61,443 bases of DNA from the IMG/VR virus record IMGVR_UViG_3300036901_000131. One strand, written 5' to 3'. Shown here in pieces: positions 7,197 through 54,164 of this stretch. The translations under genes were made by a program, and so were the position numbers. This DNA comes from a virus. The notes under the pieces were generated by a model. That model saw only the letters and a program-made list of their open reading frames with translations. It had not been told where the DNA came from and did no database searches. How positions within the stretch are numbered: position 1 is the stretch's first letter; each line of letters begins with the position of its first letter.

Positions 7197-10079
7197 TTAT
7201 GCGTTTGCTTCGAATGTTAAAAATCCCAACCAGTTCAACTGAACGTCTTCACCCGTGACGGTGACTTGCAATTGGTTGGAGACGATTGTCAGGGTTGGTA
7301 CTGACCAGTCAGCAGCACCTCCGGTGCTGTTTTCAAGTGTGTATACAGGTGATGTTCCAATGAAGGAGTAATCTCCTGCATTATTACAGATGACGAATGA
7401 TGGTGCAAGGACAAACGTCGCCGCGTTGGTGGCATCATTGTTTATGATGATGGTTGGATCGTAACCAATGACCGATCCGGTGATTCTGGCGAGACTAAAA
7501 GCTATCAACGCCGGTAGATTGTTCGCTCCTGGAGTGTCCGAGTCCGTGGTGAGAACGACCGGAGAGACCGCATCAACACCACCAGAAAAATCGTATCCCG
7601 TAGTGCCTTGAGAACCATTGCTCATGATCGTGGAAGGACCACCGCCATTATAGCCGGTCGTGAAACCATCAGGCATGGCATTTGTGATGTCCTGCATGGT
7701 TGTCGTGACGTTACCATCGGAATCTGTCGCCAGATTGATGGTGAGATCAGGGGTTGAGAAGACGATTGAAAGGCTCTGGTTGTCGATACCAGAGGTGTCA
7801 TTGATGACGAGTACATAGCTGTTTTCGGCATTGCCCGCTGACGGTGCGGTGACGTAATAACTCCAAGGGTTGCCGGTATCACTGGTCCAATTGACCACGG
7901 CATTCGTTCCAGGGATGGTGATGCCAGAGACTTTTTGTTCATGCTTGGTTGGCGTATTGTCACAGAGATAGGACGTGGGAACGCCACGAACAACGAAATC
8001 ACCCGAACAGAAATCTCGCCCACCTCGGCCAAGAACCACAGAATTGTCATAATAGACACTAGCGTCATCGCCAATGGCGACGGCACCAGCGATGCCACTG
8101 CTGATACTACCCATGATCGCGACGTTGTTTGAACCAATCGCCTGATTACCATAGCCGATGACAATGCTTCCGAGTGCGGCATTGTTATAGGCACCAATGG
8201 CTATGCCTGAGGTGTAGCTTCTCGCATCATATCCAACCACGATACCGTAGCTTTGGGCTACGTAAGAACTCCCGCCAATTACCACCGAGCCAACTAATCC
8301 TACGCCCTTCGCTTTGCCTCCGATTGCCACCGCGCCATAGCCTTCAGAATAAGCTTTATAGCCAACGGCGATACCGCCGCTATGATCTGAAGCGGTTGCC
8401 GCTTTAAATCCGAGCGCGACCGCGTAGTTCCCCCCACAGCCAGTATAGGCACCGATGGCCACCGAACCCAGACCTGAAACGGTAGCTTGTTTGCCTATGG
8501 AGATCGCGTAGGGAGCATTGTTCGCAACTTCAAAACCAAGCGCGATGCCATATGGTTCTGAAACTGTACTGGAAGCACCAATCAAGATACCAAAAACCGC
8601 AGGACTTTCGATTTCTGAGGACAGACCGCCGATCAGGATACCGTTTGTGGCCGCATTGATGGCCGGGGTGCTCGCGAGGGTGATCGCGTTGTCTGCGGTA
8701 GAGCCTCCATAACCAATCGCGATTGCATAATTCGCTACTGCATAACTTGACTTTATGGCAAGTGAAGTATTTCCCAAGGCGACTGTGTAGCTAGATTCTC
8801 CGAAAGGGCCGCCGATTGCTATCGAGCCATTTTCCGCCTTGGCCTGACTGCCGATGGCGATTGACCAATCATCAAAAGTTTTGGCTTTGTAGCCGATGGC
8901 AATGTTAATAGAACCAACCGCGTATGACTGAGCACCGATGGCGATGTTGTAAGCAGATGCTATCGTCACATGAGAACCGATGGCGATGGAGTTTTGTCCA
9001 TAAGCTTCGACGGAATAGCCAATCGCAACAGAATAGGAGGAGTTGATTCTGTTCGACATGCCAATGGAGATTGAATGGCCGGTACCACTTTCCAGATCAG
9101 TATTACTACCGATGACCACTGATCTTTCTCCCATCGATGACGTGTAGCCGCCTATCGTGATGGCAAAATCCGCACCTGGCTGGGCGAGTATTCCAATGGC
9201 TATCGCGTTATTCGCGGAAGCATAGGATTCGCCACCAATGGCGATGCCGTAGTAATTGGTGGCATTTGCATGATCCCCAATGGCGATGGTAGAAAAGCCA
9301 GAAGAACTGGATGAGTACCCGATGGCGATCGTATTATTGTTGGTGGAATGCGCCTGTGACCCAATCCCTATCGCCTGGGGGCCGTAGGCATGAGCCTGTC
9401 GTCCAATCGCGATGGAGTTAACATAAGTTGCTCTTGAAGAATATCCTATAGATACATCGTAAGTACCAGTGGTCGTGGCATGAACACCGATGGAGATTGT
9501 GTTCTGATTACCGGCGTAGGCTTCGGCCCCGATGGCTATGGAATAATTATCAGCCACATAGGAACTCTCTCCGATGGCGATCCCGCTACTACCAGTGTTT
9601 TTAGCTGAAAGACCGATAGCAATGGACTTTTGATTGAGCGCGTAAGCCTGCGTTCCGAGCGCGACTGCATTATCCGCGTACGCATGAGTATGACGCCCTA
9701 TCGCGATGGACGCATTATAGGATGCTTTTGAAAAATATCCTATTGCCATGTCGTAAGTACCAACAGTCGTGGCATGCACGCCAATGGCTATGGTATTGTC
9801 ATAAGCGGCGTACGTTTCGGCACCAATCGCGATGCCGAAAAAATCTCTGGCATCCGCGCTCTTGCCAATGGCGATGCCACCATAATTCCCGGCTGATGCA
9901 CCTTCACCAATGCCGAAATTACCCAGTTCACTGTATCCGGTTGGCGATCCAATGTAGGTTGAAATCGCGCTGATAGTCGTTTTCGCGTTGCTGCCGCTCT
10001 GCACGACACCGAGGATTTCCGTTCCGGTCAGTGTGTCGGCGACGGGTAGCGCGGAGGTTGTTGAATTCGATCCACTCAT
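7197..10079 (-). CDS. tail fiber protein with YadA-head/Hep_Hag-like 14-residue repeats
   Basis: 960 aa. The central region is dozens of ~14-residue repeats (…NSIAIGxxAxAxGxx… with IAIG/VAIG/VALG every 14 residues), as in trimeric-autotransporter head and phage fiber beta-roll repeats. The N-terminal approximately 45 aa (ATLTGTEILGVVQ…TTISAISTY) and the C-terminal domain are shared with the adjacent 767-aa paralog. Confidence 0.7.
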   Translation of the reverse strand: MSGSNSTTSALPVADTLTGTEILGVVQSGSNAKTTISAISTYIGSPTGYSELGNFGIGEGASAGNYGGIAIGKSADARDFFGIAIGAETYAAYDNTIAIGVHATTVGTYDMAIGYFSKASYNASIAIGRHTHAYADNAVALGTQAYALNQKSIAIGLSAKNTGSSGIAIGESSYVADNYSIAIGAEAYAGNQNTISIGVHATTTGTYDVSIGYSSRATYVNSIAIGRQAHAYGPQAIGIGSQAHSTNNNTIAIGYSSSSSGFSTIAIGDHANATNYYGIAIGGESYASANNAIAIGILAQPGADFAITIGGYTSSMGERSVVIGSNTDLESGTGHSISIGMSNRINSSYSVAIGYSVEAYGQNSIAIGSHVTIASAYNIAIGAQSYAVGSINIAIGYKAKTFDDWSIAIGSQAKAENGSIAIGGPFGESSYTVALGNTSLAIKSSYAVANYAIAIGYGGSTADNAITLASTPAINAATNGILIGGLSSEIESPAVFGILIGASSTVSEPYGIALGFEVANNAPYAISIGKQATVSGLGSVAIGAYTGCGGNYAVALGFKAATASDHSGGIAVGYKAYSEGYGAVAIGGKAKGVGLVGSVVIGGSSYVAQSYGIVVGYDARSYTSGIAIGAYNNAALGSIVIGYGNQAIGSNNVAIMGSISSGIAGAVAIGDDASVYYDNSVVLGRGGRDFCSGDFVVRGVPTSYLCDNTPTKHEQKVSGITIPGTNAVVNWTSDTGNPWSYYVTAPSAGNAENSYVLVINDTSGIDNQSLSIVFSTPDLTINLATDSDGNVTTTMQDITNAMPDGFTTGYNGGGPSTIMSNGSQGTTGYDFSGGVDAVSPVVLTTDSDTPGANNLPALIAFSLARITGSVIGYDPTIIINNDATNAATFVLAPSFVICNNAGDYSFIGTSPVYTLENSTGGAADWSVPTLTIVSNQLQVTVTGEDVQLNWLGFLTFEANA

Positions 10080-10090
10080 TTAAATATTCC

Positions 10091-12394
10091 TTACTGATTG
10101 GATTCGAGTTTGAGAAAAGCCATCCAACCGATGCTGCCAACTCCTTGATCCTGAACGGTGATCGTGAGCACAGCATCGGCACCAGAACCAACCACGGTCA
10201 GGGCCGGAACCGTCCAATCGACTGCGCCGTCCGTATTGTTCTGTAATGTGAACGTTGGCGTTCCAATGAACTGATAGGTGCCACTACCATCCTTGTAACA
10301 AAGCACCGGAGCGAGGGAGAAGCTGGCCGCGTCAGCGGAGCCTTCCCAGAGAGCGGCTTCATAAGCGATCACGGTTCCGTACAAATTCGCCATCGTGTAA
10401 TAAGTCATGGCTGGTGTGTTGGTGGTCGTCGGACTGTTGCCGTCGACTGTCAAAACGACTGGTCCCGATGTGGTATCAACACCGCCGCTCAGATTGGTCG
10501 TGCTGATCCCGGCAGAAAATGACTGCGTGCCGTCCGTGAAAGTCATCGACATTGGTGCTAAGCTAAAACCATAATCACTTATTGGAAGAGCCGATACGTT
10601 TCCTTCGCTATCGGTAGGGAGATAGATTATTACGGAATCATAACCAGCATCGACAAAAGCCTCTTGATTCGCTGCTGGGCTTGGATCGATGACCGTGAAT
10701 GTCAGGGAGTTTCCCGCACTTCCGGGAGTATTGGCGGTCATGGTCACGCTTGAATCACCCACGGTGAAACTAAAACTGGCGGCGGTTTCCACCGATGTCT
10801 TACCGGCCAGTTTTATCCAGGTCTCGTTGGGTTTGAACGTACCGTTGTAAGTATTTGGATAGCCTGCAATAACGAAACTTCCCATGGTTCGGTCGATGCC
10901 ATGACCAATCACGACGGAATGCGGATAATGGCTGCTCGCGCCGTAACCAATCGCGATGGCATTTTCCGCTGTAGCCATAGCACCAAAACCAATTGCGATG
11001 GCATAAGTTTCCGTCGCTTGAGTAAAAGCACCAAGCGCGGTGGCATAATTCCCGTATCCGTGAGCACTAACACCAAGCGCGACGGCACCCTGCTCCATCG
11101 CTTTGGCATCGTAACCGAGCGCGGTGGCAGCAGTCACAAACGCGACGGTGTGATAACCAAGGGCGACTGTCTTTTCGCCATGGGCATAACTATTGTCACC
11201 AATCGCGATGCCATACAGCGCTGATTTGACTGAGACGTAAGCACCAATCCCTATGGCACAAATTGAGCCAGCGATGTAAACACTACTGCCGATGGCGATT
11301 GAAGTATTGGAGTCCGCATCCACTCTGGCGACATTACCAATGGCGATTGCGTTAACATTACCAAATGAATTTGCGAGGTTTCCAATCGCAACTGAGCCAC
11401 CATGAGCGTAGGCTTGATACCCTATGGCCAGTGCGTAGGTTCCCTTGGCGACCGCCTTGAAGCCCATGGCGATGGATTTCAAGCCATAAGATTCTGAATC
11501 TGCACCAAGCGCGATGCCATACAACGCGGCATCAGCGGCATAAGCGAAGCCACCGATGGTGATCGAATATGTTCCTTTCGCGACGGTGCCGTAGCCAAGC
11601 GACGCGACTCCGCCAGCAGTAATGGCCGCGCCACCACCCACCGCCGTCGCTTTGTCACCTGAGTTGACGCAGTAAGGACCTATCGCGATGGTGTAATCTG
11701 AAGTCGCGGTCGCGTGATAACCAACGGCGAGCGCTGACGTTCCATTCGCGGTACTCTTCTCGCCGACAGTGACCGTGTGATTACCAATGGCGTAGGCTTT
11801 GTAACCAATCGCGACCATCGAGCTACCCGATACGCCAAACGCCTGATGCCCGATTATCACGCTGTAGCTGCCGTAGGATTCCGCATGGGCTCCAATGGCT
11901 ATCGAGTATCCTGTTTCTCCTCTGCATTGCGCGGCTGCGCCGATAGCGATGCCAAAGGGATTGGCCTGCGAATTATAACCCATGGCGATGGCTGCCGGTC
12001 CAAAAGCACCGGCAACTACCCCGATGCTGATCCCATGAGCGTCTGCAACATATGCATGATAACCGAGCGCGATTGTGTAACCAGTACCGGCAATCGCGTT
12101 ATAACCTAGCGCGGTCGCGTTACTGCCTTGGGCGGCGGCATTCCGGCCAACAGCCACTCCATTGGATGCGACTGATGTGCTTTCCCAACCTATCGCGACC
12201 TGACCGACATCCGACCCATTGACAGCGGCGTCTTCGCCGAACACCACGTTCTCGCCATTCAACGCTGCAACGGCGTAGGTCGAGATAGCGGTCAAGGTGG
12301 TTTGCACATCTCCCGCATCCTGAACAACGCCGATGATCTCGGCTCCAGTCAGGGTTGCGGCATCCGGAAATTGCGTGGTTTTTAAATTAGCCAT
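10091..12394 (-). CDS. tail fiber protein paralog (Hep_Hag-like repeats)
   Basis: 767 aa. N-terminus MANLKTTQFPDAATLTGAEIIGVVQ…TLTAISTY and C-terminus (…DWTVPALTVV…LTITVQDQG…FLKLESNQ) are homologous to the 7197..10079 product. Central repeats follow the pattern AIGxxAxAxG. Confidence 0.7.
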   Translation of the reverse strand: MANLKTTQFPDAATLTGAEIIGVVQDAGDVQTTLTAISTYAVAALNGENVVFGEDAAVNGSDVGQVAIGWESTSVASNGVAVGRNAAAQGSNATALGYNAIAGTGYTIALGYHAYVADAHGISIGVVAGAFGPAAIAMGYNSQANPFGIAIGAAAQCRGETGYSIAIGAHAESYGSYSVIIGHQAFGVSGSSMVAIGYKAYAIGNHTVTVGEKSTANGTSALAVGYHATATSDYTIAIGPYCVNSGDKATAVGGGAAITAGGVASLGYGTVAKGTYSITIGGFAYAADAALYGIALGADSESYGLKSIAMGFKAVAKGTYALAIGYQAYAHGGSVAIGNLANSFGNVNAIAIGNVARVDADSNTSIAIGSSVYIAGSICAIGIGAYVSVKSALYGIAIGDNSYAHGEKTVALGYHTVAFVTAATALGYDAKAMEQGAVALGVSAHGYGNYATALGAFTQATETYAIAIGFGAMATAENAIAIGYGASSHYPHSVVIGHGIDRTMGSFVIAGYPNTYNGTFKPNETWIKLAGKTSVETAASFSFTVGDSSVTMTANTPGSAGNSLTFTVIDPSPAANQEAFVDAGYDSVIIYLPTDSEGNVSALPISDYGFSLAPMSMTFTDGTQSFSAGISTTNLSGGVDTTSGPVVLTVDGNSPTTTNTPAMTYYTMANLYGTVIAYEAALWEGSADAASFSLAPVLCYKDGSGTYQFIGTPTFTLQNNTDGAVDWTVPALTVVGSGADAVLTITVQDQGVGSIGWMAFLKLESNQ

Positions 12395-13009: not shown

Positions 13010-14206
13010 TCAGTCGTCGGATGGTGTTCCGTAATAGTAGTCATTCCAGAACAAGCCACCAACGAAGTCCCGGACATGGTCGATCCTGGTCTGCGTCGCA
13101 ATGTTGTTGGCCAGACACTGCCGGATCACGGTCACCGGGTCCTGACCATCCCAGATTTTGAACGCCATGCCGCGCTCAAACTTCGGCAGGGATAAGACAA
13201 CCTCAACGGCGAATCGTTTCTTGTCACCGCACTCCTTCGCGCGAGCGACGAACACCGTCAGCATTGCCGCCTTGATCCTGATGCGTCTCTCGAACTCATT
13301 GCTGAAGTCGTCGATGGCCCGCTTGTCCTTGTCATCCATGAACTGCTTCACGTCATCAACCGTCTCATGCAGCACCAGAGCCCAGACATTCTTTTCCAGG
13401 TTCAAGGTATCCTTGGTGCCATGGATGCGGCAGTACAGGAGGGCCTTCGCCTTCACCATATGACCACTGTCGAAGCGCACGACATAGCCTTCGGCGTCCT
13501 CTAGTAATGAGGTCTCGGTTAGGAATCGCTGAATATCCTCGGCTGAGCCGTCCATCGCTCTGACGACAGGAATATGGAAGCGCGCGGCGATCTCGACCAT
13601 CGCGGGATACAGGTGATACTGACCAGAAACGTTGTGCCGGATGCCGGTCAGAGTTAGCTCGTCCTCGGGATAATCCAGCACGATGCGTTGCTTACGAGAT
13701 GTCCACTCGAAGATGGCCGTGAGACCTTCCTCGCGCATCGCCTCACAGAACGGCGCGTAGGCGTCGCCCACGGCGTCGCTGATCGGCTTGGCTACGTCGG
13801 TGGCTCCCATCTTGGTATGCCACTGCCAAGCGCCCTGACGCTTGAACGCGGTGATCATACTTCCATCCCTCTTCTCAAGGACGCGGTGCGGCATTGACCA
13901 GTCAATGATGCCCATCTGGGTCTCTGGTAACTGATTTACATTGAAGAACTTCGCATAAGGTTTTGCCACGACATCCCCTGTGCTGATGTCGAATTTGATG
14001 CCACGGCAATCGCGGCGAAGTACCGCCAGACGATGCGGCAGACCGGCCAACAACATTGGATCGGGAAAGGTCGTGGGACAGGTGAACATGTAGTTGATCA
14101 CCAGGTAGCCATTGACTTCATCACGCTTGATGATGAACTCTTCGCTACCTTCAATGGCCGGGAGATAATCCTGAATGTTGGATGCTGCTTGAAAACGATA
14201 CTTCAT
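13010..14206 (-). CDS. rnlA: RNA ligase 1 (T4 RnlA-like)
   Basis: Aligns by eye to T4 Rnl1 at DCRGIKFDISTG/ECRGIMFEMDG, PYAKFFNVNQ/PMEKFFNLNE and the nucleotidyltransferase motif I lysine (EKRDGSM/TKEDGSL). Length 398 aa against 374. Confidence 0.8.
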   Translation of the reverse strand: MKYRFQAASNIQDYLPAIEGSEEFIIKRDEVNGYLVINYMFTCPTTFPDPMLLAGLPHRLAVLRRDCRGIKFDISTGDVVAKPYAKFFNVNQLPETQMGIIDWSMPHRVLEKRDGSMITAFKRQGAWQWHTKMGATDVAKPISDAVGDAYAPFCEAMREEGLTAIFEWTSRKQRIVLDYPEDELTLTGIRHNVSGQYHLYPAMVEIAARFHIPVVRAMDGSAEDIQRFLTETSLLEDAEGYVVRFDSGHMVKAKALLYCRIHGTKDTLNLEKNVWALVLHETVDDVKQFMDDKDKRAIDDFSNEFERRIRIKAAMLTVFVARAKECGDKKRFAVEVVLSLPKFERGMAFKIWDGQDPVTVIRQCLANNIATQTRIDHVRDFVGGLFWNDYYYGTPSDD

Positions 14207-15225: not shown

Positions 15226-15474
15226 TCATCCGGCGCAACTTTCCAGGGAGTTCATCCGAGCGTCGAGACGATTTTCGACATCGGTGATGTCCTGTTGCAG
15301 GCGATTTTCAAGGTCGTTGATGTCCTGCTGGAGGAGGGATATCTCTTCTTGAAGGCCGGAAACATCCAATTCGAGGTCGCCAATCTTCTCTTGTTGGCGT
15401 GCGTTTTCTTCTTGCAGTTCCTCGAAGTTGTAATTCAGGAATGCAAAATCTTCGATGGTGTCAATTCTATTCAT
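15226..15474 (-). CDS. coiled-coil protein
   Basis: Start trimmed to the internal ATG at 15474 (MNRIDTIEDF…), which lies 2 nt downstream of the VWA-protein stop codon (15467..15469). Heptad-like repeats DINDLENRLQQDITDVENRLD. Confidence 0.35.
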   Translation of the reverse strand: MNRIDTIEDFAFLNYNFEELQEENARQQEKIGDLELDVSGLQEEISLLQQDINDLENRLQQDITDVENRLDARMNSLESCAG

Positions 15475-16711
15475 GAAAAATTTCCTTTGGTTCGTAGTAG
15501 CAAACTTGGCCGTATGATGGCTTGGCACGCGGATTCGAGTGAATGATGAACAGAGTATCACAAAAATCCTCGTCACCCCAATCATCATCGACATAGCCAT
15601 CGGTGAAAATCAGCAATCTGTGCGGCTCGATCTCATGTTCCTTCATGTACTCCCAGCAGCAGGAGGGCACCGTGCCGCCACCGCCACGGAAGGGATAGTC
15701 GTAGATTTCATCCGCGTTATCCGGTGTGAAGGTCATGACATTGTAGACCTCGGTGTCAAAGGTTCCGATGATCAGTTCAAAATCCGCGAACGTGCTGATG
15801 ATGCCAGCGCACTCGGAGAGGAAATCGGTGACCATCTCCTTCGTGGTTGACGCGGAACCATCTAGGAACGCCGCCGCCTTCACTTTCTCCTGGACATCCG
15901 AACCCGGCAGGATGAAACCAGTGGACCAGAACCGGCGTGACAATCGCATGTAAGTGTAGTCATATTTGATCGCTGAGCGCAGTACATTATCCAGCATCTT
16001 CCGCCAATCGATCTTGTGTTCCAGCAGTTTATTGAGCATCCGTAGAATGCCAGCCGGTATTTTGCCGGGATCGACATTGGGTTGTTGCGCCGCCTGAATG
16101 AGCGTGGTGCGAATGTTGTTCCGGATATCCTCCATTTCTTCCGAGGTGAGGACCGGTGGACCATCGCCTTTCTGACCATCGCTGTGCTTGAGGTCTTTCT
16201 GTCCATCTCCACCGCCGTTGCCATCAAGATGCATGTCGAGTGGCATCTGAATCTTGACCTGTTTCCTTTCCAGCAGGGCGTAGAGTTCCTCGGCGCTGAA
16301 ATCATCGGTATAATCCGGATCGAACAATACTCGGACTATCGGTGGCTTGTTTTTGATCTCGCGACCGATCATCTGACCCTGACTGTCCTTGGTGGTCAGT
16401 AAGGTGTAATTCACAAGGTAGTCGATGGCCATCCCCCAAATATCTGGATTTCTGTTGCCGCATCTGAACATGTGGTTAAAAACGCAATGAAGAACTTCAT
16501 GAGCGGTCAACCAGATCAACTCTTCGCGATCCAGTTGCTTGACGAAGTCCCGATTGTAGTAGAAGAACCGGCCATCAGTGGCCGCCGTCAGACACCAGGT
16601 GACTTCCTTCAGTTCGAGATGCAGGATGATGGGGCCGAAGATCGGCCATTCCAACAGCAATCTGACACGGGCTTTTTGGAGTTCAATGAGAACCGGATCG
16701 GTGTTCCTCAA
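15467..16711 (-). CDS. VWA-domain protein with N-terminal HExxH metallopeptidase-like domain (DUF2201/CoxE-like, CobT-like partner of the AAA+ ATPase)
   Basis: WLTAHEVLHCVFNH (HExxH) lies in the N-terminal DUF2201_N-like region with a C-terminal VWA-like region. Start overlaps the MoxR gene stop (ATGA). Confidence 0.65.
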   Translation of the reverse strand: MRNTDPVLIELQKARVRLLLEWPIFGPIILHLELKEVTWCLTAATDGRFFYYNRDFVKQLDREELIWLTAHEVLHCVFNHMFRCGNRNPDIWGMAIDYLVNYTLLTTKDSQGQMIGREIKNKPPIVRVLFDPDYTDDFSAEELYALLERKQVKIQMPLDMHLDGNGGGDGQKDLKHSDGQKGDGPPVLTSEEMEDIRNNIRTTLIQAAQQPNVDPGKIPAGILRMLNKLLEHKIDWRKMLDNVLRSAIKYDYTYMRLSRRFWSTGFILPGSDVQEKVKAAAFLDGSASTTKEMVTDFLSECAGIISTFADFELIIGTFDTEVYNVMTFTPDNADEIYDYPFRGGGGTVPSCCWEYMKEHEIEPHRLLIFTDGYVDDDWGDEDFCDTLFIIHSNPRAKPSYGQVCYYEPKEIFHE

Positions 16712-18072
16712 ATGATCATATCCTTGTACTCTTTGGCGAATTTCTTGAATTCTTCCATGTTCTTCTGATCGAATCGCAACTCATAAATCTTCATGGCCAT
16801 TTTGTGAAACATGATCATGACTTCGGGGGTGAAGTTGCGCAGCGCATACCCGATGGCCCGATCAGCCCGATCAGCCCACTTCTTGCGTTCCGGACTGGAA
16901 TCTATCCGCAGTCTGTCGCCGCGATATTTCTTGTCTACGACATCGGATTCCTTCTTCAGTTCGTATCCCATTTGCACGCATGTCGAATAGGCGATCTGGG
17001 TGCGAAACTTGTTATCCTTGGGATTGAAGGCGGTCACGCTGCCATCGAAAATTCTCTGGACATTCGGCATGTCTTCCATGAATTCACGATGCTGTAGAAA
17101 GGCCGTGCCACCGACATTACCGATGGCTCCGCACACTTCTGGTTTGATGACGTGGGGTGGGCCTGGTTTGCTGACGATCCGGGAGACGAATTCCCATGTG
17201 CGTGGGCTGCGGAAGCTGTTTTCCGGATGGTTGGCAAAATCCTCATCGAACAAATGCGATGTCCATTTCGCGAGATAACCGACCACATCCGAGTGCATGC
17301 CGTTGAGCACCGCCCATTTCTGCCAGTCCTCGTGATTGACCTCCATCTCGATGTGATCGAAGCGATTGGCGACTGGTTTGAGCAGTTTGTAGGTGAGACC
17401 TTTATCACCATCGCGGTTGCCCATGGCGAGGATCATCACGCCATCCGGCACGACGTAATCACCAATGCGTCGATCCAGCACCAATTGGTAGGCAGCCGCC
17501 ATGACGTTGGGTGGGGCCGAGTTGAATTCTTCGAGGCCGAGGATGGCTTCGGATTTTCCGGTGATGGTCCAGAGCACCTTGCCGGAGGTCAGGCGATCAT
17601 CCGCGTCCGTGACGATGACAACGAAATGGTTGGGTTTCTTTTCGATGAGGCGAGCATTCTTGCCAGCCTCGACGGCCTTGACCCTGATATCGGGATTCGT
17701 GCAATATGGTATGCTATTGTTGCCGATGGGATTGTAGAATTTGACAATCTCCGTCTCATGGACATCGACGATCTCGACGAGGTCAAGATCACGTGGGAAA
17801 ACCAATGGTGGGGTCCAGATCAGTCCGCGCATGCCGCCAATGGTTTCCACGAACGGCACGCCACGGATGTCCTCGGGCGCGACCGAGGTCAGACGAAAAT
17901 CGATGAAGGCGATGTCAAGCTCGTCGGCGACCTGGCGGGCGACCGCTGACTTGGAGATGCCTGGCGCACCATGGACATAGAGGGAAATCCCGGTCCCTCG
18001 CATGTGCTTGATGATGTCGGAGACGTATGACGGACGTACTTTATTGAGGGCTAAATCTAAATCTGTTGGCAT
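16708..18072 (-). CDS. MoxR/CobS-like AAA+ ATPase
   Basis: Walker A motif LYVHGAPGISKSAVARQVA. AAA_5/MoxR-like architecture of 454 aa. Paired with the VWA protein. Confidence 0.75.
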   Translation of the reverse strand: MPTDLDLALNKVRPSYVSDIIKHMRGTGISLYVHGAPGISKSAVARQVADELDIAFIDFRLTSVAPEDIRGVPFVETIGGMRGLIWTPPLVFPRDLDLVEIVDVHETEIVKFYNPIGNNSIPYCTNPDIRVKAVEAGKNARLIEKKPNHFVVIVTDADDRLTSGKVLWTITGKSEAILGLEEFNSAPPNVMAAAYQLVLDRRIGDYVVPDGVMILAMGNRDGDKGLTYKLLKPVANRFDHIEMEVNHEDWQKWAVLNGMHSDVVGYLAKWTSHLFDEDFANHPENSFRSPRTWEFVSRIVSKPGPPHVIKPEVCGAIGNVGGTAFLQHREFMEDMPNVQRIFDGSVTAFNPKDNKFRTQIAYSTCVQMGYELKKESDVVDKKYRGDRLRIDSSPERKKWADRADRAIGYALRNFTPEVMIMFHKMAMKIYELRFDQKNMEEFKKFAKEYKDMII

Positions 18073-18841: not shown

Positions 18842-19162
18842 TTAGATCGACTCTGGACTGACCAATAAGGGATATTCGTGCTGTCTGGCCAACGCATTCG
18901 TCATGTCGGCCTTATGACTGGCAACCTCGAAGGTATAACTGCCGACCCTGGCCTTACCCTCCCGATGAATCTTCAACATCGTGACAGTCGCGTCATCCAG
19001 TGACAGATTGAAAATACTGATCAAAACTTGGACGACGAACTGCATAGCTGTGAAGTCGTCGTTAAGAATGATGACGCAGTACATCGGTGGTCGCTTGTGT
19101 TTTGGTTTGGTGAGCGTCCTGCCGTCTTCGTTTATATCACCGAAATATTCATGGATTGTCAT
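18842..19162 (-). CDS. clpS: ATP-dependent Clp protease adaptor ClpS
   Basis: KPPMYCVIILNDDFTAMQFVVQVLISIFNL…LKIHREGKARVGSYTFEVAS aligns with E. coli ClpS ([28 protein letters not shown]…[20 protein letters not shown]). Confidence 0.8.
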   Translation of the reverse strand: MTIHEYFGDINEDGRTLTKPKHKRPPMYCVIILNDDFTAMQFVVQVLISIFNLSLDDATVTMLKIHREGKARVGSYTFEVASHKADMTNALARQHEYPLLVSPESI

Positions 19163-19584
19163 TGTGGTTTCCTAATCGTATCTGATTTATCCAGGTAGTC
19201 GAACCAAAAGTCTTTGCCGTTGTCGCTTGGTATCAACCTGTAATAGATGTCATGATCGTATTCGGCGTCCGTGCTGGATGTGCCACCGCCCCCCGCAACG
19301 GAGTCGTTCGTATTGCCGCCATTGGTGTCGTTGGTATCATCTGGACCAAAGCCTTTGATGCTGGCCGCGCACATCCTGATCAACCCGTTGGTGTCCAGTG
19401 TGGTGACCGTATCCTCGTCGATTTCCACCCTGTTGGGTGCCCAATCGTCATTATTTCCCCATTGCCAGTCCGATTTCAACAAATCTTTGATGAATGTCAT
19501 GACCTTTGGTGCGTTGCACGGCATGGGTTGAGCATGCGCGGTCGTGATGAACAAGGAAAGCAGAACTCCGCCGAGGATTTTCAT
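19159..19584 (-). CDS. secreted hypothetical protein (signal peptide)
   Basis: MKILGGVLLSLFITTAHAQP leader. Start overlaps the clpS stop. Confidence 0.45.
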   Translation of the reverse strand: MKILGGVLLSLFITTAHAQPMPCNAPKVMTFIKDLLKSDWQWGNNDDWAPNRVEIDEDTVTTLDTNGLIRMCAASIKGFGPDDTNDTNGGNTNDSVAGGGGTSSTDAEYDHDIYYRLIPSDNGKDFWFDYLDKSDTIRKPQ

Positions 19585-19629
19585 GATTGACTTCCAAAAT
19601 CCGAAAGTACCTTTCCCGTCAGTGAAAAA

Positions 19630-20058
19630 TCAAGCTGAAATTTGGATTTCCTTCGCTTTCTGGATGTCTGGAATCTGTCGGATCAGGTCAATTTCCAATA
19701 GTCCGTGTTCCAATTTGGCGGATTCGACGATCACGTGTTCGCCGATCATGAATTCGCGAGAAAAATCCCGATACGCTATGCCTCGATAGAGAATCACATG
19801 TTCGGGTTCGACGAGGCCATCAATCGCTATTTGCGAGGGCGTTTCCTTGCTGCCACGAATGGTCAGAAGTTCGCCTTGCAGGATGATGCTGAGATCAGTT
19901 CGGGTGAATCCGGCCACCGCCAGGGTCAGGCGGTATTTATCCTTGCCGATATGCGTGATGTTGTGCGGCGGGAATTTGTTCGCCGCGTTGCGTTCGAAAA
20001 ATCGTGGGTCGAGGCCAACACTATGTTTTAACACAGTGTCCATGGCGTTAGCGTTCAT
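19630..20058 (-). CDS. ibpA: small heat-shock protein, Hsp20/alpha-crystallin family (IbpA-like)
   Basis: YRLTLAVAGFTRTDLSIILQGELLTIRG…LYRGIAYRDFSREF…LEHGLLEIDLIRQIP aligns with E. coli IbpA ([28 protein letters not shown]…LYQGIAERNFERKF…LVNGLLYIDLERVIP). Start set at MNANAM (20058), preceded by AGGAGGTG. The ORF track extends to 20103. Confidence 0.8.
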   Translation of the reverse strand: MNANAMDTVLKHSVGLDPRFFERNAANKFPPHNITHIGKDKYRLTLAVAGFTRTDLSIILQGELLTIRGSKETPSQIAIDGLVEPEHVILYRGIAYRDFSREFMIGEHVIVESAKLEHGLLEIDLIRQIPDIQKAKEIQISA

Positions 20059-20205
20059 TGTATCACCTCCTAAAAGCGAAGTTTCGGCCCTGCGTTCAGG
20101 CACCGAACGAATATTTATTCAAAATACATAGTTCGCTGTGCTTGCGACCAGACGCGATCCGTCGTATGATGAGACTTCGTTGCTCGAACTATAAGGGATA
20201 TCCTC

Positions 20206-20817
20206 ATGCCGTTGGACGTAGCAGGCTTCCCGATTCAGGTGTCATCGCTGACTGATGTTCTGAAGTCGCTTGGCATCGCGCCCATACCGCGCGAAGTTCT
20301 CGCCCGACACAAGAAATCGGAAATCAAGAAACACCCCGCGCACTGGGCCGCGCCGATCCTTCACCTCTATCGTGACTCGGTCGCTTACATAGGCACGGCT
20401 TTCGTGTGCAGCATCGTCGCGGCCATCGTGGTCTTCACCTATGACCTGGTGACCTGGCATCTACTGCTGGGAACCATCCTGGGGCCGATTCTGATGTTCG
20501 TCTTGCCGATACTCATGTTGTTCGGCATGGTCGTACTCGATGGCATACGGATAAGTGTCAAGGATAAAGCCGAATGGGTCGAGAGCAAGGCCATCCTGCG
20601 TGGCACGGACAACATTCCGTGTGAGATCGCGAACCTCGGCAAGGCCATTCTCAAGGAGCAGCCCACCGCCGCCTTCGTCAAAGGCACGCTGGTGCAGAAC
20701 AATGTCACCCTCGATCCCTATCTGATCGTCAAGGATGGCGCTGATGAAGCGGTTCTGGGCATCTGGGATGACAACGGCATCCTGCTGATCGCCGCTCGAC
20801 CCGCTCACTTTCGATAA
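20206..20817 (+). CDS. membrane protein (2-3 TM helices), hypothetical
   Basis: 203 aa with hydrophobic segments (AYIGTAFVCSIVAAIVVF, LLLGTILGPILMFVLPILMLFGMVVL). Confidence 0.45.
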   Translation: MPLDVAGFPIQVSSLTDVLKSLGIAPIPREVLARHKKSEIKKHPAHWAAPILHLYRDSVAYIGTAFVCSIVAAIVVFTYDLVTWHLLLGTILGPILMFVLPILMLFGMVVLDGIRISVKDKAEWVESKAILRGTDNIPCEIANLGKAILKEQPTAAFVKGTLVQNNVTLDPYLIVKDGADEAVLGIWDDNGILLIAARPAHFR

Positions 20818-20855
20818 TCCAGTGAAAACAGGGGCATTTTTTGCCCCTGTTTTTG

Positions 20856-21437
20856 TCAGGCTTTGGCGGCTTTCATCAGATCAGCTTTGGAGATCATCGG
20901 CGCGAGGATGATCGTCATGTCGGCGTCGCCGTCAGACAACGATCTGTCGATCTTGTGATCGCCAATCGCGTGCAGGAACCGTTCGACGATTTGTCTGCCC
21001 CAGTCCCGGTGGGTGCGTTCCCGGCCTCGGAATCTCACCACCACTTTCACCTTGTCACCTTCGTCGAGGAAGCCTCTGGCGCGTTTCACCTTGATCATCA
21101 TGTCATTGTCGTTGGTGACAGGGCGCAGTTGAATTTCCTTGGTATCCACCATCATCTCGCGTTGACGTTTGGCCAATTCCTTTTCGGTTTTTTTCTTCTC
21201 GAAGCGGAATCGATCCGCGTCCAGCACCCGACAGATCGGCGGATCGGAGTCAGTCGCCCCAGGAGCCACCACGACAAGGTCAAGACCTTGGTTGCGGGCC
21301 TTTGAGAGCGCATCATGAAATGAGAAAATACCAAGTTGCCGGTCACCGTCGAGGAGACGTACCGTGCGAGCACGAATGTGCTCATTAATGACGAAATCAG
21401 TAGCCAAGTGTAAACCACATGTGTTGAAAAAATCCAA
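20856..21437 (-). CDS. infC: translation initiation factor IF-3
   Basis: INEHIRARTVRLLDGDRQLGIFSFHDA…PPICRVLD…TKEIQLRPVTNDNDMMIKVKRARGFLDEGDKVKVVVRFRGRE…MTIILAP aligns along its full length with E. coli IF-3 (INGEIRAQEVRLTG…PPVCRIMD…[20 protein letters not shown]…ITLRFRGRE…MIMVLAP). Confidence 0.85.
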   Translation of the reverse strand: MDFFNTCGLHLATDFVINEHIRARTVRLLDGDRQLGIFSFHDALSKARNQGLDLVVVAPGATDSDPPICRVLDADRFRFEKKKTEKELAKRQREMMVDTKEIQLRPVTNDNDMMIKVKRARGFLDEGDKVKVVVRFRGRERTHRDWGRQIVERFLHAIGDHKIDRSLSDGDADMTIILAPMISKADLMKAAKA

Positions 21438-21595
21438 TGAGAATGAAATTATTTATATACCATACATAACAATTGCATGTCTAAGGCTAATTTTTCTGAC
21501 AGTTGACATCCGGTCGGCCATCGGTAATCATGGCAGCGCTCTTTGAACCGTGCATCGCCTCTCCTGTCGTCCGCCCTACCGGGCGGATTCGGCTG

Positions 21596-22221
21596 TCCTC
21601 GGATGGCTTCAAAAAACGCGGGTAAGACGCGAGTATACGCACGGCCAAATGGTCACGAAAAATGTAACATGGCGCTGAACATCTCGGTTATCCTGAGGTT
21701 TGGATGGCCACGAAAATATCAGTATAAAAGCCATGTCTCGGCTATCCTCTGGATGGCCACGAAAACTAGCGCGGCACTAGGTTGCTTTTCCCTTGGTTAT
21801 CGCGAGATGGCCACGCAAAAACTTATGACTTCATACACGGCTTGATGGCCACGAAAATGAAAGGAATGCTTTGGATGATTTGGCTATCCTAGTCGGATGG
21901 CTATGAAAACGAATGGTCGAACACTGCGGGTCTCATTTTGGCCACGGAAAATAGTAGGCCGCAGCCTGGCTGTGAGGCGACTGTCCGGTTATCCTGACTT
22001 TTGGATGGCCACGAAAACAGCGTGATTTCACCGTTGCCGACTGGGCCGAGGTCTACGAAAACACCTTTGGACCGTGGGCGAGTCGGCTATCCCGTTTTGG
22101 GATGGCCACGAAAATACCAAGACACATCCCACATGTGTTTGAAGGCTATCATTCCATGATGGCCACGAAAATTATCCTGCTTCCGAGGCATACCAGAATC
22201 GGCCATCATTTTGGCTATCAG
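21596..22221. repeat. array of at least 10 degenerate direct repeats: GGYTATCC-N3-8-GGATGGCC-ACGAAAAY units separated by unique 22-33 bp spacers
   Basis: Core GGATGGCCACGAAAAY or close variants start near 21647, 21702, 21751, 21804, 21843, 21895, 21939, 22002, 22049, 22100 and 22158 (about 40-63 bp apart). Most copies carry an upstream GGYTATCC forming an 8-bp imperfect inverted repeat with GGATGGCC, whose only non-Watson-Crick positions are T.G on the plus strand. All copies share one orientation and lie between two minus-strand genes. Confidence 0.6.
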
Positions 22222-23099
22222 ACGAAGAAATCGTTGTCCACGAACATGCCGCAGGATGCCTTTACGGAAAAACCAACGCGAGGCACGATCTTGCTCCTGA
22301 CGGAGAGGCGCTCCTTGATGATCGCCAGATTTTTCTGGATCACCGGCTCCGGACTTTCGCGACTTTTCTCATTGGGCGGATTGTAGCGCACGAGGTTCAC
22401 CCGCACGTTCAGACCATACTGTTCCACCGCGTCACAGATCGCCTGCACATCGGCCTCCCGGTCATTCTCGCCGTCGATGAACGCCCAGTGCAGCACGATC
22501 TCCCGCTTCTGGGATTTCTGCCACTCGGACAACAGATCGAGGCCGTGGCCGACCGGCAGAGCCCTCGGCAGCCAGCGTTTGCGGAATTTCTCGTTCATGC
22601 TGTAGATGGAATAATAGAACTCGACCGGAGAGCCGCCGAACGCCTGTACCAGGGTGTAGCGGAAGTCCTGTGGCATGATGGTCGAGATGTTGAATTTGGC
22701 GCGTAGCCCCCTCTGGCGGGCCATGCAGGACAGACAGCCGATGATCTCCTGATTGTCCTCCAGCAGATGCGGGTTCGACAGCGCCTCGCCACGTGACATC
22801 CAGTTGACGTGCACTGAATCAGCATGGCCCTGATCATCCGCGACGGCGTCATAATAGGTCAGTACCTGCAAGGCTTGTTCGAGATACAAATCCATGTCAA
22901 CCGGCTCGAACGAAGTCTGCCCGGTGGCGGTGAGATGACACATGCGACAGGCATGCTTGCAGCCGGTGTGTGATGACAGGTAGACGATGAAGTAATCGTC
23001 CGTGCGTCGAACATAGCGGGTTTCGATGTAGCCTTCCTTCATCTGGCGGATGAAATTGACCGATCTGTCCTCATCGGACTTGAGAATGTTCCATTTCAT
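22218..23099 (-). CDS. radical SAM enzyme, RlmN/Cfr-like (short form)
   Basis: GCKHACRMCHL is the CxxxCxxC radical-SAM cluster motif. The C-terminal VNLVRYNPPNE…GFSVKASCGMFV resembles RlmN/Cfr (NLIPFNP…AACGQL, with the conserved C-terminal Cys). At 293 aa it lacks the RlmN N-terminal domain. Confidence 0.55.
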   Translation of the reverse strand: MKWNILKSDEDRSVNFIRQMKEGYIETRYVRRTDDYFIVYLSSHTGCKHACRMCHLTATGQTSFEPVDMDLYLEQALQVLTYYDAVADDQGHADSVHVNWMSRGEALSNPHLLEDNQEIIGCLSCMARQRGLRAKFNISTIMPQDFRYTLVQAFGGSPVEFYYSIYSMNEKFRKRWLPRALPVGHGLDLLSEWQKSQKREIVLHWAFIDGENDREADVQAICDAVEQYGLNVRVNLVRYNPPNEKSRESPEPVIQKNLAIIKERLSVRSKIVPRVGFSVKASCGMFVDNDFFV

Positions 23100-23623
23100 G
23101 AATAATCAAACTCAAACAATTCGTTCATCTTCCTCAAATCGTCGACGTGACAGCAAAAACGATCCCCAAATCGGAAGTTGCGTTTTGGCAACTCAATGAG
23201 ATCGTCATGCACGTACCAGCCGACAAGATCGAAGGCGGTTTCTATCGAGCCGCGCACGACCACGTAGATGTTGGCCCAGCGTTGCGGCTCATGCGGATTG
23301 ACGATCAGGTTGCCGGTCAGACGAGGGCCTGCGCCATCCATGCCAAGATGGATGACTTCCACGGTCATGCCGTGGAAGGTGAAATCCGATCCACCGTCAC
23401 CATGCGTGTCATAAATCTCTGAGTTGAACTTCTGTTGGAACGCGTCCGCCGCGAATTTTTCCGCCTCGTATGCCTGCCGGTCGGTCTGCGCGCTGGTCCG
23501 GCTGCCGTCCTTGCGAATGTCGGAAATGCCAGCGTCTCTTTTAGCGTGATACCGTTCACTCCCGTCCGTCATAGGAATTTTCCCTGACATGCATGTCACG
23601 AATAGTATTACGCAAACCAGCAC
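23096..23623 (-). CDS. hypothetical protein (start uncertain, possibly an internal ATG)
   Basis: 175-aa ORF. The N-terminal hydrophobic stretch may be spurious. Overlaps the downstream gene by 4 nt. Confidence 0.35.
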   Translation of the reverse strand: MLVCVILFVTCMSGKIPMTDGSERYHAKRDAGISDIRKDGSRTSAQTDRQAYEAEKFAADAFQQKFNSEIYDTHGDGGSDFTFHGMTVEVIHLGMDGAGPRLTGNLIVNPHEPQRWANIYVVVRGSIETAFDLVGWYVHDDLIELPKRNFRFGDRFCCHVDDLRKMNELFEFDYS

Positions 23624-23738
23624 GTTGTTGTTTCATGAACCTATAAAGCAACAAGCCTACCTGAGTGCGGCATGAATCATCATCTGCCAAACCTTCTCGC
23701 AGCACATCGGCGATGAGTTCTATCTCCATGTCGGTCAT
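23556..23738 (-). CDS. hypothetical small protein
   Basis: 60-aa ORF, coupled (4-nt overlaps) with its neighbours. Confidence 0.3.
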   Translation of the reverse strand: MTDMEIELIADVLREGLADDDSCRTQVGLLLYRFMKQQRAGLRNTIRDMHVRENSYDGRE

Positions 23739-23992
23739 GTCATCTCCACCAGACCGGCGAGCGAAAATTCGGTCAGGTCCATGTGAATGGCCAGTACCTT
23801 GATGCGCTGAATGGTCTCTTTCGGTACTGGTTTCCCACTCAGGATATCGGCCAGGGTCTCCAACGCGATCTCAAACTCCCGATGATCACACCAGTAATCG
23901 ACTTCCGCCTTTTCCTCGACGGATAAGTCACAACTTGTCATCAACGCCTCGAATATCCGCTCTGTCTCGGACCATGTAAAATCATCAGTCAT
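23735..23992 (-). CDS. hypothetical acidic protein
   Basis: 85-aa ORF. Confidence 0.35.
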   Translation of the reverse strand: MTDDFTWSETERIFEALMTSCDLSVEEKAEVDYWCDHREFEIALETLADILSGKPVPKETIQRIKVLAIHMDLTEFSLAGLVEMT

Positions 23993-24003
23993 GTAATACT
24001 ATC

Positions 24004-25242
24004 CTACGAAGTTGCCGCAATCGCCTTATATACGACATCGGGTTCCGTGCCGTCAACAATCGTGGCTTTCCGTACGATGATTTCAGAGATGCCCTTCGCT
24101 TTCATGTCAGGCAGATCGAATTGTGTCCGCAACAGTCTGGATTCGAGGACACTGCGCAGGGCGCGTCCATTGGTCTTGCGCGTGCGTGCCAGCCTGGCGA
24201 CCGCCTGCAAGGCATCGGCATCGAATGTCAGGTCAATCCCGTCCAATGCGAACATCTTTGAATATTGCTTGATCAGGGCGTTTTTTGGCTCGGTGAGAAT
24301 GCGCACCAGTTGATCCTCATCGAGTTCGTCCAGCATGGTGATCACCGGCACGCGTCCGATCAATTCCGGGATCAAACCAAATTTGATCAGATGTTCCGGC
24401 TCCACGCGACGGAACGAATCCTTGGATTGTATTTTTTGTTTGTCGACCTTCGCACCATAGCCGATGCTGGTCTCTTCCTGTTCGAGGATTTTATCCAGGC
24501 CGACGAAGGCTCCGCCCAGGATGAACAGGATGTTGTGGGTGTTGACCTTCACGAGGTCAGCGTTCGGGCCGCGCCGGTTGCCCGATGCCACCATGGTCTC
24601 GGTACCTTCCAGGAGCTTCAGGAGAGCCTGTTGGACACCTTCGCCGGTCACATCCTTGTTGGATGATCCGGTGACCTCGCGGCTGCGCTTCTTGTCGATC
24701 TCGTCGAGGAAGATGATGCCTCGCTCGGCTTTCTTCACGTCGTTGTCAGCGGCCTGAAGCAGGCGTGAGATGATGCTCTCGACATCATCACCAACGTATC
24801 CGGCCTCGGTCAACGAGGTGGTATCGACGATGGTGAGTGGAACATCCAACATGCGGGCGATGGATTTCGCCAGCAGGGTCTTACCAACCCCGGTCTGGCC
24901 GATCATCAGAATGTTTGATTTGTCGATCTCGATGCCGTCGATGACGGGATTTTCGAGTCTCTTGTAGTGGTTGTAGACGGCGACGGAGAGGACTTCCTTG
25001 GTATGGTTCTGACCGATCACATACTGGTCGAGATAGTCCTTGATCTCTCTGGGGTAAGGTGTGGTCGACTTGGTTTTGGTCAGAATGACTTTGTCTTTTT
25101 CATAACTGTTGAGAACTTCTGTGCATTTCCCAACACATTCATCACAGATGAATCCAGTTTCTCCCTGAATTAATCGCTTAACTTTCTGGGAAGATTTTGA
25201 ACAAAATGAACACTTAAGCAGCTTTTGAGAATTAGCCATCAT
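24004..25242 (-). CDS. clpX: ATP-dependent Clp protease ATP-binding subunit ClpX
   Basis: N-terminal zinc-binding domain (LLKCSFCSKSSQKVKRLIQGETGFICDECVGKC versus E. coli [33 protein letters not shown]). Walker A motif GQTGVGKTLLAKSIARML. Start moved to MMANSQ (25242), preceded by GGAAGG. The track's 25302 start adds 20 unlikely residues. Confidence 0.85.
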   Translation of the reverse strand: MMANSQKLLKCSFCSKSSQKVKRLIQGETGFICDECVGKCTEVLNSYEKDKVILTKTKSTTPYPREIKDYLDQYVIGQNHTKEVLSVAVYNHYKRLENPVIDGIEIDKSNILMIGQTGVGKTLLAKSIARMLDVPLTIVDTTSLTEAGYVGDDVESIISRLLQAADNDVKKAERGIIFLDEIDKKRSREVTGSSNKDVTGEGVQQALLKLLEGTETMVASGNRRGPNADLVKVNTHNILFILGGAFVGLDKILEQEETSIGYGAKVDKQKIQSKDSFRRVEPEHLIKFGLIPELIGRVPVITMLDELDEDQLVRILTEPKNALIKQYSKMFALDGIDLTFDADALQAVARLARTRKTNGRALRSVLESRLLRTQFDLPDMKAKGISEIIVRKATIVDGTEPDVVYKAIAATS

Positions 25243-44422: not shown

Positions 44423-44820
44423 ATTTGGGGAGTTAGACCTCCCCTTTTCAGCTTTTTCCAGTCCAGTTCCCACATTACGATGAGGTGATAGCCTAGCGAT
44501 CTACATGAACAACGGCTGCCTCAGACAGAAATTGCAGGGTCGTTTTTCTACTGTGGTTATTGGCGGTCATAGCTCCGCACCGCTTACACCCTTTGCCCTT
44601 AAGATGTGATCTTGGCTGCTGAGGTATGACGCCGTGAATTGGGCATCCAACATAGATTATTTCCTGTGACCCTCTGTACACTGACATGCTATAGTCATAT
44701 CTAGTTCCATGCACAATCATGGCCGACTCTATGAATTTCTGTGTCGTTAATTTTAAGCCCATTGACTTTCTCACATACTGTGAAAGTATACACGAGATGA
44801 AAGGCGGAGTGGAGGACATT

Positions 44821-50815: not shown

Positions 50816-51468
50816 GGCGGAGACTCCCTGTTTTTTCCTAACGTTGATGACGGAGTCGCTTATAGCCGAGTGGAAGGAGGGAGGCAACTCATGAAAGTCG
50901 GTATCAAGCTCGACTCGGAGCACACTGAGGAAAGGCTAATTCCACCAAAACAGTGCTGATTATCTCCACTTGATCGGATCGATTCATCACAGGGATACAT
51001 GCAGGGCAATGTTCAATTCGTCTCGTGCGCGATCAATTGGGCGAAAAACGATTCCTCAAATGAAAGTGCTTTGGAGCTAATTCGGTTGGTCAAAGAGCAC
51101 GCCTGAAACGAGTTGGGAGAGAGCTTTTGGCCCTCTCCCTTCTGTTTCAAGGCTTACGGCTCACGCCGCCTCTTAAAGCCCATCCTTTCAGATTCTGCTC
51201 AGCCGCTCACGCAGCGAGAGCAAATTCCTGGGGAAGAATGTCATTATCGTTGACATCTCAGGTTTTGGACTGATCTTGGGTCGTACCTTACCCCGTGGCC
51301 ACATATCGTCCTTACTACCGAAATCGATCCTAATTTCACCCCCATAGGTCTCCAAGGGTGGAGATGCGGAGGAATGGTGGAGGTGCGGACTTGTTGCAGG
51401 TCCGGTCTTTCAGTCTATGCCACTCAGCATCTACCACGATAGTCCTGCGGTTTCCCGCCTGACAACTT

Positions 51469-54156: not shown

Positions 54157-54164
54157 AGAGGTAA

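Follow-up and report, generated by a model that had tools for sequence, protein, structure and literature searches.

The window analyzed here, a whole metagenomic contig of 61,443 bp (IMG/VR virus record IMGVR_UViG_3300036901_000131), is one fragment of a huge-phage genome. Between positions 18842 and 25242 it encodes the unfoldase ClpX, the N-degron adaptor ClpS, an IbpA-like small heat-shock protein, and translation initiation factor IF3, and the genes of this interval lie mostly on the minus strand, within a long minus-strand run. Together with their neighbors they form a co-oriented block in the order membrane protein, ClpX, radical-SAM protein, IF3, Hsp20, ClpS, AAA ATPase, and DUF2201 protein. 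The members of the block, and a transfer-messenger RNA (tmRNA) gene elsewhere in the window that bears on ClpX, are as follows.

15467 to 16711, minus strand: DUF2201 metallopeptidase/VWA-like protein, downstream of clpS
16708 to 18072, minus strand: AAA+ ATPase (phrog_1297), downstream of clpS
18842 to 19162, minus strand: clpS, full length, 106 aa (Pfam ClpS PF02617)
19630 to 20058, minus strand: IbpA-like small heat-shock protein (Hsp20), 142 aa (Pfam HSP20, phrog_432)
20856 to 21437, minus strand: infC, encoding IF3 with IF3_N and IF3_C domains; the exact start codon is uncertain
22218 to 23099, minus strand: radical-SAM protein with a CxxxCxxC motif (CKHACRMC) and a distant likeness to RlmN/Cfr (phrog_27142)
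24004 to 25242, minus strand: clpX, full length, 412 aa, identical to database protein P0001
25299 to 26273, minus strand: predicted multi-pass membrane protein of 324 aa with a central coiled coil, directly upstream of clpX; no family match
51131 to 51502, minus strand: two-piece (permuted) tmRNA of the alphaproteobacterial type (Rfam RF01849)

A sequence-only reading of this DNA had placed full-length ClpS, IbpA-like Hsp20, and ClpX genes between 18842 and 25242. Pfam, NCBIfam, and comparison with the Escherichia coli proteins bear this out for all three, on the minus strand; the IF3 gene and the RlmN/Cfr-like radical-SAM gene in the same interval had been overlooked.

The closest cultured relatives of the window are Sinorhizobium phage Phosso (469 kb) and Agrobacterium phage Atu_ph07 (490 kb), whose ClpX proteins are, respectively, 54% and 50% identical to that of the window. 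Metagenomic relatives with ClpX 57 to 67% identical lie on contigs of 472, 520, 576, 578, and 637 kb, and across the phage-lineage relatives ClpX identity ranges from 55 to 81%, the closest being the contig L252 at 81%. Judged by lineage genomes of 470 to 640 kb (those of the Atu_ph07, Phosso, and AP-J-162 kind), the window represents about 10 to 13% of the genome from which it came. By megablast, the 8-kb region matched none of 50,697 phage records, and a scan of IMG/VR for exact 45-mers was likewise negative. The clpX block is surrounded by phage-type genes (both T4-type topoisomerase II subunits, a T4 Rnl1-like RNA ligase, and YadA-head fiber proteins), and the composition of the contig is uniform, with a tetranucleotide correlation of 0.96 between its two halves.

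The ClpX protein carries the Pfam domains zf-C4_ClpX (E = 1.1e-13) and AAA_2, passes both NCBIfam equivalog cut-offs (NF003745, 528.7 bits against 359; TIGR00382, 494.5 against 370.75), and is 51% identical to E. coli ClpX over 409 aa. Its motifs were mapped onto an E. coli reference that matches the numbering used in the literature. The zinc ligands C11, C14, C33, and C36 are invariant in the ClpX alignment. The ATPase motifs are all in place, namely, Walker A (GQTGVGKT, 115 to 122, with K121), Walker B (DEIDK, 180 to 184, with E181), the arginine finger R297 (IGRVP), and the sensor-II arginine R360 (NGRALR), and the pore-1 loop GYVG is retained at 148 to 151 (Y149, V150). The sequence-only reading had proposed looking in ClpX for the IGF loop that docks on ClpP; the loop is there, in the form I260-G261-Y262, aligned to E. 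coli I268-G269-F270. IGY is common to the closest relatives of the window ClpX, while most others have IGF or MGF, and also LGF, and the docking tripeptide is kept in almost all of the 64 phage-type ClpX sequences from IMG/VR described below.

The window ClpX differs from its E. coli counterpart in the residues that contact the ssrA tag. Six ClpX residues are critical for ssrA recognition, Y153, V154, T199, V202, R228, and H230 (Fei et al. 2020, PMC7652416). Four of these are kept in the window protein (Y, V, V, and R), whereas T199 is replaced by N195 and H230 by G225, so that the RKH loop reads RRG. These changes concern specificity, not family membership. Human ClpX has Leu at the T199 and H230 positions and does not degrade ssrA substrates (PMC7652416), and with both positions also changed in the phage protein, it is reasonable to suppose that the degron preference of the window ClpX is probably shifted relative to that of E. 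coli ClpX.

The tmRNA gene was detected by Rfam (RF01849, 89.8 bits against 50; RF04321, 86.9 against 47), having been missed by ARAGORN. Its predicted tag is (A)VNDNDILPQEFALAA, ending in EFALAA, and the resume codon is an unusual GUC. Because ssrA tags are ClpXP degrons, with LAA the canonical ClpX degron, the tmRNA is functionally linked to ClpX; the phage tag ends in LAA although the phage ClpX is altered at two ssrA-contact residues. The alpha type of the tmRNA fits an alphaproteobacterial host.

ClpS is equally recognizable, with a Pfam score of 98.9 bits against a cut-off of 23 (E = 1.5e-28) and 48% identity to E. coli ClpS. Its score for the NCBIfam ClpS equivalogs is below the cut-off (97 against 149), which marks it as a divergent ClpS, and it has an N-terminal extension of ~25 aa. 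The N-degron pocket is identical to that of E. coli at six of six positions (N34, D35, D36, T38, M40, and H66). We compared 55 phage ClpS sequences with E. coli ClpS (those of the window and Phosso plus 53 from IMG/VR loci) and found the pocket to be near-invariant among them. The ClpA-binding residues, which the sequence-only reading had likewise proposed examining, are also conserved: both E79 and K84 are retained in the window protein, E79 in 54 of the 55 sequences and K84 in 53.

The small heat-shock protein scores 44 bits against 20.8 with PF00011 (E = 2.4e-11) and matches phrog_432 with E = 2.5e-28. It is 33% identical to E. coli IbpA over 141 aa, and the NCBIfam IbpA/IbpB models are its best matches yet stay under their equivalog cut-offs (IbpA, 85.7 against 212). 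Its open reading frame (ORF) extends from 19630 to 20103, the probable start being at 20058, where it was called on L001, an independent Logan contig from this phage. The alpha-crystallin domain carries an AVAGF motif, and the C terminus, KEIQISA, contains the IXI motif (I-Q-I). IF3 passes its equivalog cut-off comfortably (TIGR00168, 148.6 bits against 60). The radical-SAM protein, encoded between clpX and infC both here and in L252, matches phrog_27142 (E = 8.5e-101); its similarity to RlmN/Cfr (47 bits) is far under the equivalog cut-offs, and it may be another translation-related gene.

The order of these genes recurs widely in phages. Our IMG/VR sample consisted of the 80 best ClpX loci, of which 64 were of phage type and 16 of bacterial type, with clpP immediately upstream of clpX. 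In the phage-type loci, the genes found downstream of clpX on the same strand included those for IF3 (55 of 64), Hsp20 (46 of 64), and ClpS (53 of 64), and in 40 of the 64 all three followed ClpX in the same order (median span, 3.2 kb). Upstream of clpX, 58 of the 64 loci encode a homolog of the 324-aa membrane protein, and we regard this predicted protein as a conserved, uncharacterized neighbor or partner of phage ClpX. The gene order is kept even among phages whose ClpX is only 48% identical, and soil and aquatic samples have yielded dozens of contigs from uncultured huge phages that carry the cassette. Because the same order and orientation recurs in 40 of the 64 phage-type loci, we concluded that the clustering of ClpX, IF3, Hsp20, and ClpS is not chance. 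In bacteria, the arrangement is entirely different: clpP was adjacent to clpX in all of 80 bacterial loci, and ClpS, Hsp20, or IF3 lay within 6 kb in none of them.

The individual relatives show how the window fits this pattern. In Phosso, the order, in the same orientation, is topoisomerase II, ClpX, IF3, and then, further along, the small heat-shock protein, thymidine kinase, and ClpS, and in Atu_ph07, ClpX adjoins IF3 and the topoisomerase genes. L252 has the order topoisomerase II, vault-like protein, membrane protein, ClpX, radical-SAM protein, IF3, Hsp20, ClpS, AAA ATPase, and DUF2201 protein, and a 637-kb ENA contig, L251, has the order of L252 without the radical-SAM gene or a detected vault-like protein. 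Since the genes for the AAA+ ATPase and the DUF2201 protein follow clpS in the window, L251, and L252 alike, the pair belongs to the same collinear block. The cassette of the window spans 6.4 kb, being stretched by insertions (the radical-SAM gene, a repeat array, and an ORF with a signal peptide-like N terminus, the latter two described below).

Sixteen nominally viral IMG/VR contigs (L024-L029, L032, L046, L047, L049, L051, L052, L057, L060, L063, and L065) carry the bacterial clpP-clpX pair, with ClpP 64 to 76% identical to that of E. coli. These look like host DNA or prophage flanks, not phage-borne Clp genes.

The possibility that the window genes are recent host-derived passengers, or that the contig is bacterial or chimeric and the genes have no role in infection, has something to recommend it, in that all three are typical cellular genes and ClpX reaches cellular equivalog thresholds. 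However, among ~185,000 species-representative genomes the best cellular ClpX is 50 to 52% identical, below the 55 to 81% of the phage-lineage relatives. In a neighbor-joining tree (made without bootstrap and with limited bacterial sampling), the window ClpX falls in a phage-only clade, with bacterial ClpX in a separate compact cluster. Comparison with the 81% relative gave proportions of synonymous differences (pS) of 0.68 to 0.84, near saturation, and of nonsynonymous differences (pN) of 0.12 to 0.28; for ClpX, IF3, and Hsp20, with pN of 0.12 to 0.17 and pS of 0.68 to 0.70, dN/dS was 0.07 to 0.09, indicating strong purifying selection. The gene arrangement is contrary to the clpP-clpX pairing of bacteria and is conserved across phages with highly diverged ClpX, the composition is uniform along the contig, and the block sits among phage hallmark genes in synteny with cultured phages. 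The more specific idea that a clpPX or clpSA fragment of bacterial origin was picked up along with host DNA is ruled out by gene context in the 80 bacterial loci. We therefore consider recent acquisition from a host effectively refuted.

Where, then, is ClpP? As the sequence-only reading had noted, there is none in the window: the best E was 1.0 in a tblastn search with E. coli ClpP and 0.56 for a ClpP profile run on all 650 six-frame segments. ClpA was not found in the window either, where E. coli ClpA matched solely the AAA module of ClpX. The complete relatives carry both. ClpP is encoded at 30200 to 30814 in Phosso and at 463635 to 464249 in Atu_ph07, in each case as a stand-alone gene whose product shares 64% identity with E. 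coli ClpP; both phages also encode full-length ClpA. These clpP genes lie among nonstructural genes. In Phosso, clpP is far from clpX, and in Atu_ph07 the two are ~27 kb apart when measured across the record origin. A true ClpP is encoded no more than 10 kb from ClpX in three huge-phage loci of IMG/VR, and ClpX and ClpP could both be placed on uncultured contigs of 578,292, 434,884, 171,789, 240,363, and 34,655 bp, linked by identical size in base pairs. Because clpP is typically tens to hundreds of kilobases from clpX in this lineage, its absence from the window says little, and since the window covers roughly one-tenth of a genome and Phosso and Atu_ph07 carry ClpP and ClpA elsewhere, the absence is most likely a sampling effect of fragment size. 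That the phage of the window has a ClpP of its own is strongly suggested by its relatives, although not proven. A metagenome scan with a clade-specific alignment of ClpP-neighbor sequences found no relatives. One candidate ClpP, P0140, on a JGI contig with Phosso-like synteny (ClpP, a BNR-like gene, and NAD kinase), was rejected as belonging to a different phage, the contig having a GC content of 42.5% and a tetranucleotide correlation with the window of 0.23.

From the absence of ClpP, the sequence-only reading had argued that a phage with ClpX and ClpS would be obliged to work through the ClpP or ClpA of its host. This does not follow, the window being unrepresentative of the genome and Phosso and Atu_ph07 encoding both proteins. 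A phage truly lacking ClpP (and ClpA), whose ClpX and ClpS dock on the host enzymes and so retarget or modulate host proteolysis, would nevertheless account for the lack of ClpP within 61 kb, the retained docking tripeptide and E79/K84 would fit a host partner as well as a phage one, and Iyer et al. propose that phage ClpS delivers targets to host ClpAP where the phage lacks ClpP (PMC7824862). ClpP also went undetected for the nearest large relatives, the 472- and 637-kb contigs with ClpX 66 to 67% identical, which are absent among the top 120 matches of either ClpP search, so ClpP is unproven for the nearest subclade. Against this stand the small share of a lineage genome that the window covers, the presence of ClpP and ClpA in the complete syntenic genomes examined, the several uncultured huge contigs that hold both ClpX and ClpP, and the usual distance between the two genes. 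On balance, we think such dependence on host partners unlikely. Another possibility is that ClpX acts mainly as a ClpP-independent remodeling chaperone for phage DNA replication or transposition-like complexes, much as E. coli ClpX acts on lambda O and MuA, which would explain its position beside the topoisomerase II genes. Those genes do lie within a few kilobases of clpX in the window, Phosso, Atu_ph07, L251, L252, and many IMG/VR loci, and such a role was suggested by the authors of the Atu_ph07 (PMC6102473) and AP-J-162 (PMC11242549) papers. However, the conservation of the docking tripeptide in almost all 64 phage-type proteins argues for selection on ClpP binding, distant aquatic loci keep ClpX-IF3-Hsp20-ClpS with no topoisomerase genes within 10 kb, and the tighter partners of clpX are translation and proteostasis genes. 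We would therefore expect remodeling to be the main function only with very low probability.

The explanation that we favor, and consider likely, is that the window carries part of a block for translation and proteostasis that has been inherited vertically in the huge-phage lineage of Atu_ph07, Phosso, and AP-J-162, with genes that are genuine and functional and with clpP most likely encoded elsewhere in the genome. Several points weigh on the other side. Neither ClpP nor ClpA of this particular phage was found, the contig ending before any such gene, and the silence of the 472- and 637-kb relatives in the ClpP searches tells here too. In addition, the conserved order could reflect general genome collinearity, not functional coupling, and the replacements of IGF by IGY, of RKH by RRG, and of T199 by N are substitutions known from sequence alone.

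What the analysis shows is the identity of the genes, their conserved motifs, synteny, and purifying selection, and the ClpP and ClpA of the relatives; docking partners, substrates, and a biological role are inferred, as follows. ClpX hexamers would dock on ClpP through their IGY loops, a phage ClpP being the likeliest partner and host ClpP a possible one, and docked ClpX would unfold substrates and feed them in. ClpS would bind N-degron substrates and the N domain of ClpA, thereby tuning ClpAP, and the small heat-shock protein would hold unfolded proteins. Along with the phage IF3, tmRNA, tRNAs, and RlmN-like enzyme, the block may thus provide the phage with its own toolkit for translation and protein quality control during a long, protein-intensive infection. 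A more elaborate version, in which the membrane protein/ClpX/IF3/small heat-shock protein/ClpS cassette is a co-regulated unit, strikes us as doubtful. Here, the retuned ClpX (T199N, H230G, and IGY) with a phage ClpP, and ClpS with a phage ClpA, would form a protease system partly orthogonal to that of the host, coupled to translation initiation under phage control through IF3 and to ribosome rescue by the phage tmRNA with its own tag, that selectively clears host or stalled products at takeover, with the membrane protein serving as an anchor or adaptor for ClpX.

The remaining features of the block and the rest of the window are listed here.

7197 to 12394, minus strand: two large YadA-head-repeat proteins, probably fibers/adhesins
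13010 to 14206, minus strand: T4 Rnl1-like RNA ligase
19159 to 19584, minus strand: 141-aa ORF with a hydrophobic, signal peptide-like N terminus; its stop overlaps the clpS start codon
20206 to 20817, plus strand (opposite to the block): predicted membrane protein of 203 aa; no family match
21599 to 22174, no strand assigned: repeat array of about 10 to 11 copies of GATGGCCACGAAAA[CT], in the ORF-free 780-nt gap from the radical-SAM gene to the IF3 gene
23096 to 23992, minus strand: three small ORFs of 85, 60, and about 158 to 175 aa, between clpX and the radical-SAM gene; no family match
34539 to 35573, plus strand: CHAD-domain protein
41730 to 42767, plus strand: 345-aa ORF with a weakly J-domain-like N terminus (RRWHPDL) containing the HPD motif
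44719 to 45984, plus strand: adenylosuccinate synthetase
54085 to 54239, minus strand: tandem tRNA-Gly(GCC) and tRNA-Gly(UCC)

The 85-aa ORF likewise follows clpX in L252, whereas no homolog of the 141-aa ORF was found in related loci. On the gene strand, the repeat of the array reads TTTTCGTGGCCATCC, usually followed 5 to 9 nt on by GGATA[AG]CC, at an irregular spacing of 38 to 108 nt. Seven near-exact copies of GATGGCCACGAAAA are present where 0.09 would be expected, and the rest of the window has no copy of the motif, nor do L251 and L252. The array could represent iteron-like sites (as in the iterons of replication origins) or regulatory binding sites. A scan of 18 to 27 kb for sigma-70 promoters and terminators performed no better than on shuffled sequences and so says nothing on operons. 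The phrog_1314 label "HNH endonuclease" on the DUF2201 protein looks like a misannotation. A vault-like protein of 921 aa, with a Major Vault Protein shoulder (E = 3e-20) and vault repeat domains, is encoded at 27291 to 30056 on the minus strand and is kept in L252 (4548 to 7259).

The sequence-only reading had also named a J-domain protein at 41730. The HPD motif and a consistent run of J-like matches speak for it, but the scores are weak and the identity is not established. The Pfam DnaJ model (PF00226) gave a subthreshold 15.2 bits against 27.8 (E = 0.023), and the top PDB sequence matches were J domains with E of 0.05 to 1.5. A tblastn search against phages gave one weak match, to an unannotated ORF in a 485-kb uncultured phage (LR745208), and the AlphaFold2 single-sequence model was unusable, with a predicted local distance difference test score of 32.

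Genes of this kind have been described before in cultured jumbo phages. The Atu_ph07 paper lists ClpX, ClpA, ClpB, ClpP, ClpS, and DnaJ (Attai et al. 2018, PMC6102473), the AP-J-162 paper describes six Clp ORFs, with clpX beside the IF-3 and topoisomerase genes (PMC11242549), and Iyer et al. review ClpP, ClpS, ClpA, ClpX, Hsp20, DnaJ, and IF3 in jumbo phages (PMC7824862). Atu_ph07, Phosso (PV764938), and AP-J-162 resemble the window in the order topoisomerase II, ClpX, and IF3, followed at a distance by the small heat-shock protein and then ClpS, with translation genes embedded; AP-J-162 also has a tmRNA, and the hosts of all three are alphaproteobacteria, consistent with the alpha-type tmRNA of the window. 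They differ in that their ClpX is 50 to 55% identical to that of the window, which also has extra insertions. Phosso ClpX has IGF, RKN, and T where the window ClpX has IGY, RRG, and N195, and both ClpP and ClpA are on record for Phosso and Atu_ph07, whereas neither is seen in the window contig.

Other systems are more distant. The window proteins share domain architecture and key motifs with ClpXP, ClpS-ClpAP, and IbpA of E. coli, and the tag ends in LAA, but ClpX is changed at two of the six ssrA-contact residues (T199N and H230G) and ClpS and the small heat-shock protein are under the NCBIfam equivalog cut-offs. Bacteria have clpP-clpX and clpS-clpA pairs, whereas the window has clpX and clpS in one block with infC and the small heat-shock protein gene. 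Among other huge phages, Bacillus phage G and the Lak megaphages likewise have genes for ClpX as well as ClpP; those of phage G lie side by side in the bacterial style, unlike in the window, and both of their products (gp257/gp258) were detected in virions by mass spectrometry (PMC12484599). The PA5oct-like Pseudomonas jumbo phages encode ClpS (39% identical), ClpP, and ClpA but represent a different lineage and arrangement; they are not among the best 40 of 204 ClpX matches, although Pseudomonas records do occur among the 204.

Thus, phage ClpX, ClpS, ClpP, ClpA, Hsp20, DnaJ, and IF3 are already catalogued in cultured jumbo phages, and the window is one more, fairly divergent example. Two points go modestly beyond the searchable literature: the breadth and tightness of the ClpX-IF3-small heat-shock protein-ClpS cassette, which contrasts with the bacterial clpP-clpX pair, and the lineage-specific changes at residues where ClpX contacts ssrA, in a phage that also encodes a tmRNA. 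If the cassette is indeed a functional unit, it would offer a way of learning how phages of very large size manage translation and the quality of proteins while they infect their hosts.

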